Shown here piece by piece: positions 13,708-55,316 of a stretch of 64,000 nucleotides of DNA. The notes beneath the pieces are model-generated. The model saw nothing but the letters and a program-made list of their open reading frames with translations. It ran no database searches and was not told where the DNA came from. How positions within the stretch are numbered: position 1 is the first letter of the stretch; each line of letters begins with the position of its first letter. The DNA comes from Minisyncoccota bacterium (lineage in GTDB: Bacteria > Patescibacteriota > Minisyncoccia > Phycocordibacterales > UBA9973): NCBI GenBank assembly GCA_041663185.1, contig JBAZQY010000001.1, positions 117,298-181,297 of the forward strand. The letters are read 5' to 3'. A program made the translations under genes and the position numbers.

Positions 13708-14130
13708 TCACTTCTGGTTAAGCTTGGCTTCAACGCTAAGCGTGGCATGCGGTACACTCTTCAGCCTTTCCTTGCAGATCAGCTTCCCGGTTACCCTGCA
13801 AATGCCATAGGTTTTATTCTCTATGCGCAATAAAGCGTTCCCGAGATTGTTGATGAACTTCTGCTGGCGTCCAGCCAGACGGCTGTTCTCTTCTTTGGAC
13901 ATGACCTGGTATCCCTCTTCAAGGATCTTGAATGTTGGCGAAGTGTCATTGGTTCCATGCTCTCCGCCGGGATCTTGGTATGCCTCCATCAGCAATTTCA
14001 GATCTTCATTGGCTGTTTCAAGTTTGCTCATAATAAGCTCCTTGAATTCCTCGAGTTCCTCGTCTGAGTACCTTGTTTTTGTTCTTGGCTCCTCTGCTGT
14101 GGCCACGCTGTGACCATTTAATTTTCCCAT
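13708..14130 (-). CDS. DksA/TraR-family C4-type zinc-finger protein (degenerate finger)
   Basis: Coiled-coil N-terminus and ...GICRVTGKLICKERLKSVPHATLS..., which resembles the DksA/TraR C-terminus. The gene sits in a ~50% GC island that contrasts with its ~30% GC surroundings. Confidence 0.55.
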   Translation of the reverse strand: MGKLNGHSVATAEEPRTKTRYSDEELEEFKELIMSKLETANEDLKLLMEAYQDPGGEHGTNDTSPTFKILEEGYQVMSKEENSRLAGRQQKFINNLGNALLRIENKTYGICRVTGKLICKERLKSVPHATLSVEAKLNQK

Positions 14131-15239: not shown

Positions 15240-15258
15240 TTTAAATTTTTATTAATTG

Positions 15259-15345
15259 CGGATGGGGTGAGATTCGAACTCACGGAACCGGTTAGGGTTC
15301 GGCGGTTTAGTAAACCGCTGCCTTAAGCCTCTCGGCCACCCATCC
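15259..15345 (-). tRNA. Class II tRNA (Ser-like, long variable arm) with an apparent anticodon ACU (non-canonical)
   Basis: Cloverleaf on the minus strand: acceptor GGATGGG/CCCATCC, T-arm GTGAG-TTCGAAT-CTCAC, a ~19-nt variable arm, and anticodon arm GCGGT-TTACTAA-ACCGC. Confidence 0.6.
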
Positions 15346-15364
15346 CTAACTAGCTCATGTTACT

Positions 15365-16384
15365 TTAAATTTTAAATTTTTCCAAGTGTTTTGGGTTATT
15401 TGTTCCAACAATACTTAAATATCTTTTTACCTGCGTTTTAGAATTTATTCTAACATCCACCCCCTTAGTCAAAACACATTTTATATTAAGATCTTTTAAA
15501 GTATCCAAAACAAATTGCAGGAGAGGTATTGATCTATTGGTAAACGCAATTTTTTTATAAAAATATTTTTTTTTATTTACAGAATAAATATTTTTATAAA
15601 AACAACCATCTGTATCAATGAGTCCTCTTAAACAGGCAATTCTATATTTCTTATTATTGAGAATCCATTGTGGCACTTCAATTTGATTTTTAACTTTATT
15701 TCCAACTATCAAGCCGAGAGCCTTTAAATAATCAACTAGTTCTACCCTAGATACTTGGATTACTGCAACTGATTTTCTTATTGGGTCATTCAAATATGTA
15801 TAAATTGATGGTTTAATTTTAAATAATTGACATATTAAATCTGAAACAAATTTAATATATTTTTTATCTGTATTTCTATTTAAAGTTATTTTAACCATAT
15901 ACTTTGACAATCCACCATCTCCAAGCATTATTCCGATGAATTCCGCAAGATTCTTCGATTTCTTTATTTTGTATATAGACTTTCGAACATTTATAATTGG
16001 ATGACTACCAAAACGCCCTTTTGAATTCCACCACTTCTCCCAAGCAATTTTCCTTTTTTCTAAATTACCTCCTACAGTAGAGTTTTTTAAGACATTATTT
16101 CTTCCACCCTTACTACTAATAATTTTTAAATGTTCATTAAAAGATACAATTTTTTCTATTTCGGGAATTCTAACTTTGTATTGATGACTCAATCCCTTAA
16201 CTGTTTCAAAGGGTAATCGTGTTACTCCGCTTCTCCAATCACGCAAAGTTCTAGATGAAACACTTAATAATTTTGCAAAATCATCAAATTCTTTTTTAGA
16301 TTTATATATTAAATTTTGAACAAATTCAGTCTGTTCTTTTTTATTTTTAAAAACTATTCTTTTATATATAAACCTCTTATCCAT
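15365..16384 (-). mobile_element. Free-standing LAGLIDADG-family homing endonuclease-like ORF with an N-terminal HTH
   Basis: Two LAGLIDADG-like motifs are present (LAEFIGIMLGDGGL and LRGLIDTDGCF). The N-terminus ...LLSVSSRTLRDWRSG... is HTH-like. The ORF sits between two divergent tRNA genes. Confidence 0.65.
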
Positions 16385-16444
16385 TCTTCCATTATATACT
16401 TATGCTAGAAAAATCTCAATAATAATGATAGATTACAGATATAG

Positions 16445-16531
16445 GGAGCCGTGTCAGAGTGGTCTAACGTACCTCTTTGCTAAAGAGGCAGGGTGTAAAA
16501 GCCCTCACAGGTTCGAATCCTGTCGGCTCCG
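16445..16531 (+). tRNA. tRNA-Ser (anticodon GCU)
   Basis: Acceptor GGAGCCG/CGGCTCC, anticodon arm CCTCT-TTGCTAA-AGAGG, a long variable arm, and T-loop TTCGAAT. Confidence 0.8.
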
Positions 16532-16557
16532 CAATTGTTTATGCTATAATACACTAC

Positions 16558-21653: not shown

Positions 21654-21657
21654 ATTG

Positions 21658-21731
21658 TCCGCCTGCTACGATTCGAACGTAGGACCCTCGAGGTATAAGC
21701 TCGATGCTCTAACCAACTGAGCTACAGGCGG
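21658..21731 (-). tRNA. tRNA-Ile with anticodon UAU (AUA decoder)
   Basis: Acceptor CCGCCTG/CAGGCGG, D-arm GCTCAGTTGGTTAGAGC, anticodon arm TCGAG-CTTATAC-CTCGA, and T-arm CTACG-TTCGAAT-CGTAG. Confidence 0.75.
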
Positions 21732-23907: not shown

Positions 23908-24354
23908 ATGGCCGTATATATAGACAACAGAAAAGCTCACTTTAATTACAGCATCGAGGATACTTACGAGGCTGGTATTGAATTACTCGGGCATGAAGTC
24001 AAATCAATCAAGAGTGGAAGCGGGAATATTAACTCGGCTTTTTGTATCGTCCGTGGTGGTGAAGCGTATATCATAAATATGAAAATTCCTCCTTACCAAC
24101 CACACAATATGGATCTTGGATACGACCCTGAAAGGACCCGTCGCTTATTATTATCAAAAAAAGAAATAAAGAAGTTAGCGGATCAAGATGATAAAAAAGG
24201 ATTGACTCTCATCCCTATTTCATTATATAGTAAGGGTCCTTATATAAAAGTCTCTATCGCTGTGGCTCGCGGGAAAAAAGAATTCGACAAAAGAGAAACA
24301 ATCAAAAAACGCGAAACAGATAGAGAGATAAGGAGAACTTTGAAAACAGGGTAG
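23908..24354 (+). CDS. smpB: SsrA-binding protein SmpB
   Basis: 148 aa with a conserved SmpB core (…NRKAHFNY…GIELLGHEVKSIK…) and a basic C-terminal tail. It lies immediately upstream of tmRNA. Confidence 0.85.
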   Translation: MAVYIDNRKAHFNYSIEDTYEAGIELLGHEVKSIKSGSGNINSAFCIVRGGEAYIINMKIPPYQPHNMDLGYDPERTRRLLLSKKEIKKLADQDDKKGLTLIPISLYSKGPYIKVSIAVARGKKEFDKRETIKKRETDREIRRTLKTG

Positions 24355-24428: not shown

Positions 24429-24819
24429 GGGGATGATCGGCTTCGACAAAATGAATCCTCTTATATATGCATGTAAAGTACCCAGGAATCTTTTAAAACT
24501 TCTTGGAAAAGACTAAGTGCAAACAAAGTCGCTTCAGTTCTTTCACCTTACTCTTTTGGGTTAGGTCAAAGAGCTCTTGCTTACGCCTAAACGGCTCCGG
24601 CAAGTGTTCATTCTTTTGACATCCGATATAAAGAGTGGGCATAATTTATCGGGTTACGATTTTACAAATGTCCGATGTAGAATTCGACAATTTAGGACTC
24701 GGTGTTTATCTTTCCTGTATGTCCTCTAGGATAAACATTTAAACCCAAGTGGACATAACAAACATGTAGAATTATCTAAGAGTTCCTTTTGCACGCGGGT
24801 TCGATTCCCGCCATCTCCA
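24429..24819 (+). ncRNA. ssrA: tmRNA (ssrA)
   Basis: 5' end GGGGATGATCGGCTTCGAC. The 3' T-arm GCGGGTTCGATTCCCGC plus acceptor CATCTCC pairs with the 5' end. An internal reading frame gca aac aaa ... gct ctt gct tac gcc taa encodes a tag ending ...RALAYA. Confidence 0.8.
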
Positions 24820-24865
24820 CAATTAAAAAACGTCCAGCAATGGGCGTTTTTTAATTGTGGAGATG
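24812..24865. terminator. 21-nt perfect inverted repeat incorporating the tmRNA 3' terminus
   Basis: catctccacaattaaaaaacg-tccagcaatggg-cgttttttaattgtggagatg. Confidence 0.55.
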
Positions 24866-54116: not shown

Positions 54117-55316
54117 TTACTTGATGATTTTTGTTACAACTCCTGCACCGACGGTCTTTCCTCCTTCACGGATTGCAAAGTGCATTTGATCTTCAAGAGC
54201 AACTGGAGTAACAAGTTTAACAGTAAGTTTGACTGTGTCTCCTGGCATAACCATTTCTACTCCAGCAGGTAGTGCAGCTTCTCCGGTCACATCTGTCGTA
54301 CGAATGTAGAATTGAGGTTTGTATCCAGTAAAGAATGGAGTATGACGTCCACCTTCTTCTTTTTTCAAAATGTAAACTTCACACTCAAACTCTGAGTGAG
54401 GAGTCACAGTTCCTGGCTTTACAAGAACTTGTCCACGAGTGACATCTTCTTTCTTAATACCACGGATAAGGATTCCAGCGTTGTCGCCGGCCATACCTTC
54501 TTTCAAGTTTTTATTAAACATTTCAATGCCAGTGACTGTTGTTTTTGCTGTGTCCTTAATACCAACAATTTCTACGTCTTCACCAACTTTCACAATTCCA
54601 CGTTCGATCTTACCAGTCACGACTGTTCCACGACCTTCAATAGAGAAGATGTCTTCAATCGGCATTAAGAATGGCTTTGTAATATCGCGTTCTGGAACTG
54701 GAATATAAGTATCAAGAGCATTCACTAGGTCAAGAATTCCTTTTGCATATGGGTCATCATTACTTGTAGATTCAAGTGCCTTGAGAGCTGATCCACGAAT
54801 AACTGGAGCATTTGCACCATCGAAACCTTGCTTAGTAAGAAGTTCACGAACTTCTTCTTCCACCAAATCAAGCATGTCGGCATCATCTACCATGTCACAC
54901 TTGTTTAGGAAAACAATAATTTTAGGAACGTTCACTTGCTTTGCAAGCAAGATGTGCTCACGTGTTTGTGGCATCACTCCATCTGTCGCTGCAACAACGA
55001 TAACTGCACCGTCCATTTGGGCAGCACCAGTAATCATGTTCTTAATATAGTCAGCGTGTCCTGGAGCATCGATGTGCGCATAGTGACGTGTTGGTGTCCA
55101 GTATTCATTGTGAGAAAGAGCGATCGTGATACCACGAGCTTTTTCTTCTGGAGCTGAGTCGATTTGATCAACTCCCTTAATCTTAGCTCCATATTCACCT
55201 CCTTGACGAGCCAAAATACTTAAAATAGCCGCGGTCAATGTAGTTTTCCCGTGGTCAACGTGACCAATAGTTCCCACATTTACGTGTGGCTTGTCTCTGT
55301 TAAATTCTTCTGCCAT
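54117..55316 (-). CDS. tuf: Elongation factor Tu
   Basis: [29 protein letters not shown]-motifs. 399 aa. Confidence 0.95.

Follow-up and report, generated by a model that had tools for sequence, protein, structure and literature searches.

Monomeric LAGLIDADG homing endonucleases of the I-Tsp061I and I-DmoI type are archaeal enzymes encoded in rRNA introns, and free-standing LAGLIDADG open reading frames (ORFs) lie between genes in the organelle genomes of fungi and algae. Phage T4 carries a free-standing homing endonuclease gene of the GIY-YIG family, SegB, within a tRNA gene cluster. WhiA, a Gram-positive transcription factor built on a domesticated LAGLIDADG scaffold, carries a C-terminal helix-turn-helix (HTH) domain. 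Its catalytic acidic residues have been lost, and it is retained throughout its lineages. With regard to tRNAs, an adenosine at anticodon position 34 (A34) is, to our knowledge, nearly absent in bacteria beyond tRNA-Arg(ACG), and the tRNAs with unmodified A34 that we know of serve family boxes in strongly reduced genomes. Examples are Mycoplasma tRNA-Thr(AGU) and yeast mitochondrial tRNA-Arg(ACG) (PMC11066159). Here, a locus is described in which the two subjects meet. It lies in a stretch of 64,000 nucleotides from a Minisyncoccota bacterium (contig JBAZQY010000001.1, positions 117,298 to 181,297), hereafter the window, where a 339-aa LAGLIDADG ORF stands between two divergent tRNA-Ser genes, one with anticodon GCU and one with anticodon ACU.

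The account that we hold with moderate confidence is that tRNA-Ser(ACU) is a working, AGU-reading isoacceptor and that the ORF is a free-standing homing endonuclease cassette, neither of which needs the other to exist. The tRNA would be inherited in a low-GC Parcubacteria/Paceibacterota group and be common in uncultivated phages too. The cassette, with a predicted promoter of its own, would have its niche in the short promoter or leader space just upstream of AGY-reading tRNA-Ser genes.

Structure, conservation and spread of tRNA-Ser(ACU)

ARAGORN finds four RNA genes in the window, among them tRNA-Ser(act) at 15258-15345 (-) and tRNA-Ser(gct) at 16445-16532 (+). The former is drawn with a 7-bp acceptor stem, a 3-bp D stem, a 5-bp anticodon stem (GCGGU/ACCGC) closing the loop U-U-A-C-U-A-A, a long variable arm of 5 bp, a standard T arm and G73. 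Against Rfam RF00005 (gathering score 29) it reaches 52.6 bits (E 1.9e-8), above the 46.1 bits (E 1.2e-6) of the tRNA-Ser(GCU) gene. It thus combines the cloverleaf, long variable arm, G73 and above-threshold covariance score of a bacterial class-II tRNA-Ser. An earlier note on this DNA, made from the sequence alone, had arrived at the anticodon ACU by parsing the arm. The scan returns the same anticodon and structure, and the coordinates and the two LAGLIDADG motifs given in that note likewise agree with ARAGORN, Rfam and the ORF list. A mis-parsed anticodon or a pseudogene is ruled out by the ARAGORN structure, the Rfam score and the covariation described below.

The same isoacceptor recurs in related genomes. 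The three closest homologues of the ORF (50-56% identical, from other samples, one of them a Vogelbacteria metagenome-assembled genome (MAG)) have a tRNA-Ser(act) ~20-30 nt downstream of the ORF and, where the contigs reach far enough, a divergent tRNA-Ser(gct) upstream. Numbering the loci fetched for comparison with an L, tRNA-Ser(ACU) adjoins the ORF in all four members of the window's ORF clade (the window, L001/L008, L006 and L007). A further 11 species-representative genomes among the best 80 of at least 578 have a tRNA-Ser(act) beside the ORF; they are named as Nomura-, Yanofsky- and Kaiserbacteria, Minisyncoccia and Paceibacterota. An alignment of 14 distinct ACU sequences from related Parcubacteria/Paceibacterota genomes, which diverge widely in every stem, has standard pairs in 98.9% of pair cells; both partners have changed in 17 of the 25 pairs, and each of the five helices shows covariation. 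None of 500 shuffles reached the covariation score, slid registers drop to 32-52% paired, and the loop YUACUAA does not vary. The compensatory covariation and the invariant loop together indicate that the tRNA and its anticodon are under selection.

The earlier note had described the loop as that of tRNA-Ser(GCU) with G34 replaced by A, which is not the case in this genome. With the anticodon masked, ACU sequences have a mean identity of 0.71 to one another and of 0.60 to GCU sequences, and the ACU gene of the window shares a backbone identity of 0.54 with the resident GCU gene. The GCU tRNAs of ACU-bearing genomes have a recognisable backbone of their own (GGAGCCGUG…CCUCUUUGCUAAAGAGG), and that of the window is 85-91% identical to the GCU tRNAs of other ACU-bearing genomes, whether these carry the ORF or not. 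Since the ACU tRNAs group together and their backbone is unlike that of the neighbouring GCU tRNA, the ACU gene is best described from its sequence as a distinct paralogue of the GCU gene, not as a recent point mutant, and a G34A mutant of the adjacent gene is ruled out on both grounds.

A more general form of this idea, in which the ACU gene is a decaying G34A duplicate of tRNA-Ser(GCU) or a fragment copied in by an integrating element, draws on its position next to a GCU gene and a mobile-looking ORF and on the partial GCU fragments in some related spacers (L158, L193). It is nevertheless highly improbable, given a full-length gene that outscores the GCU gene in Rfam, the covariation and invariant anticodon loop of the 14 sequences, the low backbone identity to the resident GCU tRNA and hundreds of independent occurrences. 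No integrase was found near the ACU tRNA or the ORF in the window. The variant, pseudo-tRNA or integration-associated copy that the earlier note had suggested is countered by the same covariation and by the conservation of the isoacceptor.

The wider spread of tRNA-Ser(ACU) was followed with a pattern made from its anticodon arm and T arm (GTTTACTAAAC-N22-28-GTTCGAATC). At least 120 loci in JGI metagenomes match, and among the matches listed ARAGORN calls Ser(act) in 116 of 120: 44 with a tRNA-Ser(GCU) within 1.5 kb (25 in opposite orientation, 19 in tandem), 21 in dense tRNA arrays (for example L100, L104, L111, L150 and L176) and 51 alone on their fragment. In IMG/VR, at least 120 contigs match (L208-L327); all 120 listed give Ser(act), in 89 distinct sequences. 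These viral genes mostly lie inside phage-type tRNA arrays, and a GCU tRNA is also present in 1 of the 120 listed. The other NNY tRNAs of the 120 listed arrays all have G34, except for three Gly(ACC). The ACU tRNA at 4559-4646 of L085, a MAG contig labelled Patiriisocius, is 98% identical to that of L273 from IMG/VR, which reflects either a candidate phyla radiation contig mislabelled as viral or a recent exchange of the tRNA between phage and host. It is pure speculation that ACU, by largely replacing GCU in phage arrays, might let the tRNA escape host anticodon nucleases.

Among deposited phage genomes, the nearest BLAST matches checked have the anticodon UGA (Bellamy, 121Q, Bastille) or GCU (S-CBWM1, S-PM2). 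Full-text literature searches, of incomplete coverage, returned nothing relevant on a tRNA-Ser(ACU) isoacceptor, and a 2026 survey of Patescibacteria tRNA genes does not mention one. A conserved A34 isoacceptor in a split codon box for which no description was found is, provisionally, more surprising than the ORF beside it.

Probable decoding by tRNA-Ser(ACU)

Inosine at position 34 (I34) pairs with U, C and A, and the substrate loop of TadA is UACG (U33-A34-C35-G36). Seryl-tRNA synthetase (SerRS) ignores the anticodon and identifies its tRNAs by the acceptor end (here G73) and the long variable arm; AGY is therefore the one two-codon NNY box in which a change of G34 to A should not harm charging. 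From these identity elements only, we infer that tRNA-Ser(ACU) is charged with serine by SerRS. Its A34 would stay unmodified and read AGU by a Watson-Crick pair, and the neighbouring tRNA-Ser(GCU) would read AGC and, by wobble, AGU. Most likely, tRNA-Ser(ACU) acts as an A34 decoder specific for AGU. A fuller claim, to which we give about even chances, is that it represents a natural unmodified-A34 tRNA in a split two-codon box, present in a clade and in many phages, dedicated to AGU and confined to serine because SerRS ignores the anticodon.

The behaviour of this anticodon has been measured on an orthogonal tRNA in E. coli, where it read AGU at 9.4% and AGG at 0.36%, with any reading of AGC and AGA below the level of detection (PMC11066159). 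According to the same source, A34-encoded tRNAs are nearly always converted to inosine (PMC11066159). Following this rule, tRNA-Ser(ACU) would be deaminated to ICU by a TadA-type enzyme and would read AGU, AGC and, to some extent, AGA, and the virtual lack of GCU tRNAs in the listed phage arrays would be sensible if ACU covered both AGY codons. We regard such a conversion as rather improbable. I34 would also pair with A, yet AGA is frequent (10.2 per 1000 codons in the window) and occurs where arginine is conserved: it leads the codon counts of ACU-bearing genomes (35 of 75) at those Arg columns of the ORF family that are at least 90% conserved, and both R9 and R253, which are invariant, have AGA codons in the window ORF. 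These positions indicate that AGA still means Arg in the ACU-bearing genomes, which makes inosine reading unlikely, as NNU, NNC and NNA here lack the single meaning that goes with I34. A reassignment of AGA to serine, which would make ICU harmless, is ruled out by the same conserved Arg positions. Furthermore, the loop is U-A-C-U-A in 14 of 14 sequences and its U36 departs from the G36 of the TadA substrate, and the failure of the ACU anticodon to read AGC in E. coli also speaks against inosine. Finally, the ORF-linked loci L001-L087 contain 19 tRNA-Arg(GCG) and no tRNA-Arg(ACG). CGY is thus served by G34 in these Parcubacteria loci, as it is in archaea, which suggests that they may lack TadA or have no need of it.

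The tRNA-Arg(GCG) loci (for example L002, L005, L009, L012, L016 and L019) often have a tRNA-Arg(CCG) as well, and tRNA-Arg(ACG) was seen in some tRNA-array loci of the sets that were sampled through the tRNA.

Two points weigh on the other side and temper the case for an unmodified, AGU-dedicated tRNA. AGU outnumbers AGC in the window by 287 to 59, but the AGU excess of ACU-bearing genomes is equalled in the Cys, Thr and Gly boxes and tracks a low GC content at third codon positions. It therefore lends no specific support to co-adaptation, and adaptation of AGU usage to the ACU tRNA, which gave p 7e-6 in a first test, was dropped for this reason. In addition, the lack of a match to a TadA-like ORF in the window and 2.4 Mb of related loci, obtained with a non-random sample and an approximate query, is weak evidence against deamination.

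Window-wide, AGA is the second commonest Arg codon (180 against 233 CGT). In the EF-Tu gene (54117-55316 (-)), 13 of the 15 Arg codons are CGT and one is CGC, and AGA occurs once, at a non-conserved position. This pattern may be either an ordinary expression-linked bias or an avoidance of AGR in highly expressed genes.

Found in hundreds of environmental bacteria and phages, a conserved A34 tRNA that serves the AGY half of a box shared with AGR makes it possible to study two questions in nature: why A34 is normally shunned, and what keeps such a tRNA from misreading AGR. If specific for AGU, tRNA-Ser(ACU) would also be a ready-made decoder for codon reassignment work.

The LAGLIDADG gene upstream of tRNA-Ser

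Pfam LAGLIDADG_3 (PF14528) matches the ORF with E 7e-8 (33 bits, cut-off 22.5), and HTH_3 matches residues 35-75 weakly, below its cut-off (E 0.008). In 24 aligned homologues, LAGLIDADG_3 is found in all 24 (best E 3.9e-15), HTH_3 in 12 and HTH_23 in 7. The motifs GIMLGDGG (residues 151-158) and LRGLIDTDG (residues 252-260) stand at the ends of predicted helices 144-155 and 245-259, respectively. D156, D257 and D259 are invariant in the 24 homologues, as are R253, G254, L255, T258 and G260. The family alignment has a mean column identity of 52%, with the key residues of LAEFxGIMLGD156GG and ACLRGLID257TD259G and a Trp cluster (W115/W118/W119) invariant. In the AlphaFold (AF2) model (pLDDT 88.9), an N-terminal helical/HTH module with helices 33-39, 44-52 and 59-69 is followed by a low-confidence linker (~121-140) and a two-domain LAGLIDADG core, with the predicted tandem alpha-beta-beta-alpha-beta-beta-alpha fold.

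The best PDB match of the family profile is I-Tsp061I (2dch, E 2e-8), with both LAGLIDADG halves covered, and the same structure heads the Foldseek results (E 4e-12, TM 0.75 on target). Foldseek returns 90 PDB matches with E <=0.001, the 50 listed being LAGLIDADG enzymes, intein endonuclease domains, LAGLIDADG maturases and WhiA; at lower ranks stand the intein endonuclease domains, the I-DmoI/I-CreI chimera E-DreI, the maturases and WhiA. PHROGs annotates the ORF as 'endonuclease'. Judged by sequence and model, the ORF is probably a LAGLIDADG homing endonuclease that acts as a monomer of two domains and has an additional DNA-binding HTH module at its N-terminus. The LAGLIDADG protein with an HTH that had been proposed earlier is in this respect borne out, and its catalytic residues are intact. 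The gene is, however, free-standing and lacks the intron- or intein-like context that had been considered: the window has no Rfam intron family at gathering thresholds, and the ORF is intergenic, without a group I intron or intein.

More than 1,200 homologues were found, nearly all of ~335 aa, and those with a named source all come from Parcubacteria-type MAGs of the candidate phyla radiation. One NCBI protein, assigned to a Candidatus Paceibacterota MAG, is 100% identical to the window ORF. A scan with the family alignment places the family in at least 578 species-representative genomes. In deposited phages, only remote intein-type relatives were found.

The family is tied closely to one tRNA species. 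In 71 of the 76 species-representative genomes that could be evaluated, a tRNA-Ser starts within 100 nt past the ORF stop on the same strand (70 GCU, 1 ACU; median 18 nt). The ORF stands upstream of ACU in the window clade (the window, L001, L006, L007) and upstream of GCU in the remaining members, the more distant of which have the order ComF-ORF-Ser(GCU)-Ser(UGA)-x-Arg(GCG)-RecG. In the window, the ORF fills the space between the tRNAs, as had been noted, with gaps of 19 nt from its stop to the ACU tRNA and 60 nt from its start to the GCU tRNA. The order in the window is ComF … EamA / ACU<- / ORF<- / GCU-> / HK RR RecG (HK, histidine kinase; RR, response regulator), whereas relatives such as L082, turned to the same orientation, read ComF / GCU<- / ORF<- / ACU-> / HK RR RecG.

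The start of the ORF has a layout common to most members, in which a -35 and a -10 element, GGAGGT and ATG follow one another and the -10 ends 6 nt before the ATG. In the window, a promoter-like site is predicted at 16419-16391 with 11 of 12 consensus positions. As the -10 is so near to the ATG, the ORF mRNA seems to be leaderless or nearly so, despite the conserved GGAGG resembling a Shine-Dalgarno sequence. The family-wide form of this architecture is TTGACT-N17-TAnnAT-GGAGGT-ATG (window 16385-16419 (-); L002, L009, L012, L016, L019 and others). In L065, only a T-arm remnant (GTTTCGAATCCGC, 1267-1340) remains after the ORF, and an ACU tRNA is kept upstream; the downstream tRNA-Ser seems to have been deleted.

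Evidence for mobility comes from loci that lack the ORF, which were found through the tRNA pattern and thus independently of the ORF. Of the 44 listed metagenome loci in which the ACU and GCU genes are at most 1.5 kb apart, only 4 contain the ORF and 40 do not. The window's nearest relatives by flanking proteins, L146 and L115, are both ORF-less and have their tRNAs back to back. RecG of L146 is 78% identical to that of the window, and its tRNAs are in the window's order with a spacer of 87 nt. L115 (RecG 75%, p177 72%, p396 71%, PilM 70%) has a divergent tRNA pair with a spacer of 97 nt. The GCU tRNAs of the ORF-carrying L040 and L197 are near-identical to those of the ORF-less L118, L125, L173 and L154.

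The junctions can be compared as well. In ORF-carrying loci of the commoner, L082 type (ACU<- ORF-> GCU->), the last ~ten codons of the ORF run through the native upstream sequence of the GCU tRNA, AAAAATGGAAAAA…AATATGTTAGAGTAA, and the same upstream-of-GCU sequence is found in ORF-less loci (…GTATAGCAGAAAAAATGGAAAAATAGCAGGAATATGTTAGAGTAAATAAGTT). This sharing marks a sharp insertion boundary, with the cassette set precisely between the divergent tRNA upstream regions. The window spacer GCTAGAAAAATCTCAATAATAATGATAGATT seems, by eye, to resemble the GCU upstream region of ORF-less relatives (…GCAGAAAAAATGGAAAAATAGCATTAATATGCTAGAGT…), and the ORF-less spacers of L146, L115, L173 and L206 centre on …GTATAGCAGAAAAAATGGAAAAATAGCA….

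Both tRNA orders occur among ORF-less relatives. A single inversion between the inverted tRNAs was rejected as an explanation for the layout of the window, as, relative to the flanks, the orientation of the ORF is kept while the tRNAs are swapped and both orders exist without it. The simplest account would be that diverged cassette lineages inserted independently, each ahead of the AGY tRNA-Ser gene that it encountered. Within the ACU-bearing group, the ORFs have diverged much further than RecG: pairs with RecG 73-82% identical have ORFs that are 46-52% identical (82% and 52% for L073 and L029), and the window shows 56-63% for RecG and 38-44% for the ORF. The window ORF is 38-46% identical to every partner compared, whether RecG is 42% or 63% alike.

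By standard homing, the enzyme would cut the spacer of another genome that lacks the ORF there, and the break would be mended with an ORF-carrying copy that the cell has taken up, which brings the cassette in. The cassette often neighbours comF and type IV pilus genes. In L158 (9262-9543) and L193 (2755-2993), a 5' piece of the GCU tRNA (GGAGCCGTGTC…) is found in the ACU-GCU spacer, and a GC-rich insert of 100-150 nt comes after it; L158 has a degenerate rest of the tRNA as well. These may be scars of earlier insertion or repair at the site.

The main rival to a homing cassette is a domesticated, vertically inherited and repeatedly lost host factor similar to WhiA, which would use its HTH and LAGLIDADG scaffold to attach close to the promoter of tRNA-Ser and would control or process that tRNA. 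The position directly upstream of tRNA-Ser(GCU) in 70 of 76 genomes over many Parcubacteria lineages, the often conserved order ComF-ORF-Ser(GCU)-Ser(UGA)-Arg(GCG)-RecG, the strong conservation of the family including its Trp cluster, the correlation of ORF and RecG identity, and the presence of WhiA among the structural matches, with the Pfam WhiA LAGLIDADG model touched by 4 of 24 members, are all in keeping with such a role. We nevertheless consider it the less likely of the two. Both catalytic acidic residues are invariant, whereas WhiA has lost them; the gene is missing from the window's nearest relatives and from most of the listed ACU/GCU pairs; tRNAs and upstream sequences are near-identical, with sharp boundaries, between loci with and without the ORF; and the ORF stands upstream of ACU in one clade and of GCU in others, with a divergence out of step with RecG. 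Of the two fates that the earlier note had left open, the still active homing or mobile endonuclease is thus the reading best supported by the empty sites in close relatives, and the domesticated regulator fits less well with the invariant acidic residues and the absence of the gene from most related loci.

Several observations weigh against a homing cassette. ORF and RecG identities correlate positively overall (Spearman 0.43), and in other clades the two track closely (75% vs 73%; 60% vs 70%), as under vertical inheritance. The ORF-less loci are fragments of 1-15 kb, so that the ORF may lie elsewhere in those genomes, and they all come from lineages that bear the ACU tRNA; sampling through the ORF, in turn, cannot measure its prevalence. 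Presence and absence at one site in close relatives are established, and loss is formally indistinguishable from gain. Finally, immunity substitutions in the tRNAs of ORF-carrying genomes were sought and rejected, as no consistent tRNA difference separates ORF-carrying from ORF-less loci, and thus no target is marked inside the tRNA.

If the homing cassette is the true explanation, a free-standing LAGLIDADG lineage of chromosomal genes would have adapted to the space upstream of a single tRNA species throughout a class of the candidate phyla radiation. Such specialisation would imply ongoing DNA exchange among episymbiotic bacteria, and the family would supply new long-site nucleases whose natural targets can be read from ORF-less relatives.

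The wider window and comparison with known systems

The window has a GC content of 36% and includes type IV pilus genes, comF, recG, a ribosomal protein operon and EF-Tu. It uses the standard genetic code with the stops TAA, TAG and, rarely, TGA: a crude set of 63 ORFs ends in 51 TAA, 11 TAG and one TGA, the last closing a DksA-like gene (13708-14130). The other RNA genes include a tRNA-Ile(UAU) at 21657-21731 (-) with an Rfam score of 69.3 bits, which recurs near recG in relatives (L067, L077, L095, L115, L146, L204). It is apparently a UAU tRNA, and not the lysidine-modified CAU tRNA that usually does so, that reads AUA (21.6 per 1000 codons). A tmRNA lies at 24429-24822 (+) (119.9 bits, tag peptide ANKVASVLSPYSFGLGQRALAYA), and the ORF at 23908-24354, directly upstream of it, has the position expected for smpB.

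Table 1. Positions of the tRNA-Ser genes, the LAGLIDADG gene and its parts, and nearby elements (window coordinates)
Feature	Position	Strand	Basis
tRNA-Ser(ACU), class II, G73, loop UUACUAA (A34, C35, U36)	15259..15345	-	ARAGORN, Rfam, orthologues
339-aa free-standing gene with HTH and double-motif LAGLIDADG, stop codon included	15365..16384	-	ORF list, Pfam, AF2, Foldseek
N-terminal helix-turn-helix region, residues ~33-75	16160..16288	-	Pfam HTH_3 (below cut-off), model helices
First LAGLIDADG helix/motif LAEFIGIMLGDGG, acidic residue D156	15911..15955	-	D156 invariant in 24 homologues; model helix 144-155
Second LAGLIDADG helix/motif ACLRGLIDTDG, D257 and D259	15605..15652	-	Invariant residues; model helix 245-259
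Promoter-like site of the ORF, TTGAGA-17-TATAAT	16391..16419	-	Consensus scan, 11/12 matches
Spacer that probably keeps the GCU-tRNA upstream region (…GCTAGAAAAATCTCAATAATAATGATAGATT…)	16385..16444	+	By-eye likeness to ORF-less relatives
-10-like TAGATT within the spacer before the GCU tRNA	16429-16434	+	Sequence reading
tRNA-Ser(GCU), divergent from the ORF	16445..16531	+	ARAGORN, Rfam 46.1 bits

Compared with known tRNAs, tRNA-Ser(ACU) resembles the A34 tRNAs of Mycoplasma and yeast mitochondria, with which it shares a genome-encoded A34 that probably stays A and a small, AT-rich genome. Those tRNAs serve four-codon family boxes, in which loose reading is harmless, whereas tRNA-Ser(ACU) belongs to a box divided between Ser (AGY) and Arg (AGR), occurs together with a G34 isoacceptor and is widespread in phages too. 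With bacterial tRNA-Arg(ACG), the substrate that TadA converts to I34, it shares A34-C35, U33 and A37 in the loop. It differs in having U36 for G36, in that its inosine form would misread AGA, and in that the related loci use tRNA-Arg(GCG).

On the side of the ORF, the I-Tsp061I and I-DmoI-type monomeric enzymes and the archaeal intein endonuclease domains likewise consist of one chain with two LAGLIDADG motifs, each with an acidic residue. Unlike I-Tsp061I and I-DmoI, the ORF lies outside any intron or intein, has an extra N-terminal HTH/helical module of ~125 residues and is found beside a tRNA gene in the chromosomes of candidate phyla radiation bacteria. WhiA shares the two-domain LAGLIDADG fold and an HTH with the ORF (structural match 8dy9_I, E 1e-6), but the HTH of the ORF is N-terminal, its Asp residues are invariant and the gene is patchy. 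Neither WhiA_N nor HTH_WhiA gave a Pfam match in the ORF or 24 family members, and LAGLIDADG_WhiA was touched weakly by 4 of the 24. SegB and the organellar LAGLIDADG ORFs resemble the present family as intergenic cassettes with their own expression signals, set beside conserved tRNA genes and patchy among relatives. However, SegB is a phage gene of the GIY-YIG type and the organellar ORFs are eukaryotic, whereas this family is tied to one tRNA species, the AGY-reading tRNA-Ser, across a bacterial group at the level of a class. A LAGLIDADG gene beside a tRNA gene is of a known kind, and what is new is the fixed tie to one tRNA species across a class, together with the N-terminal HTH.

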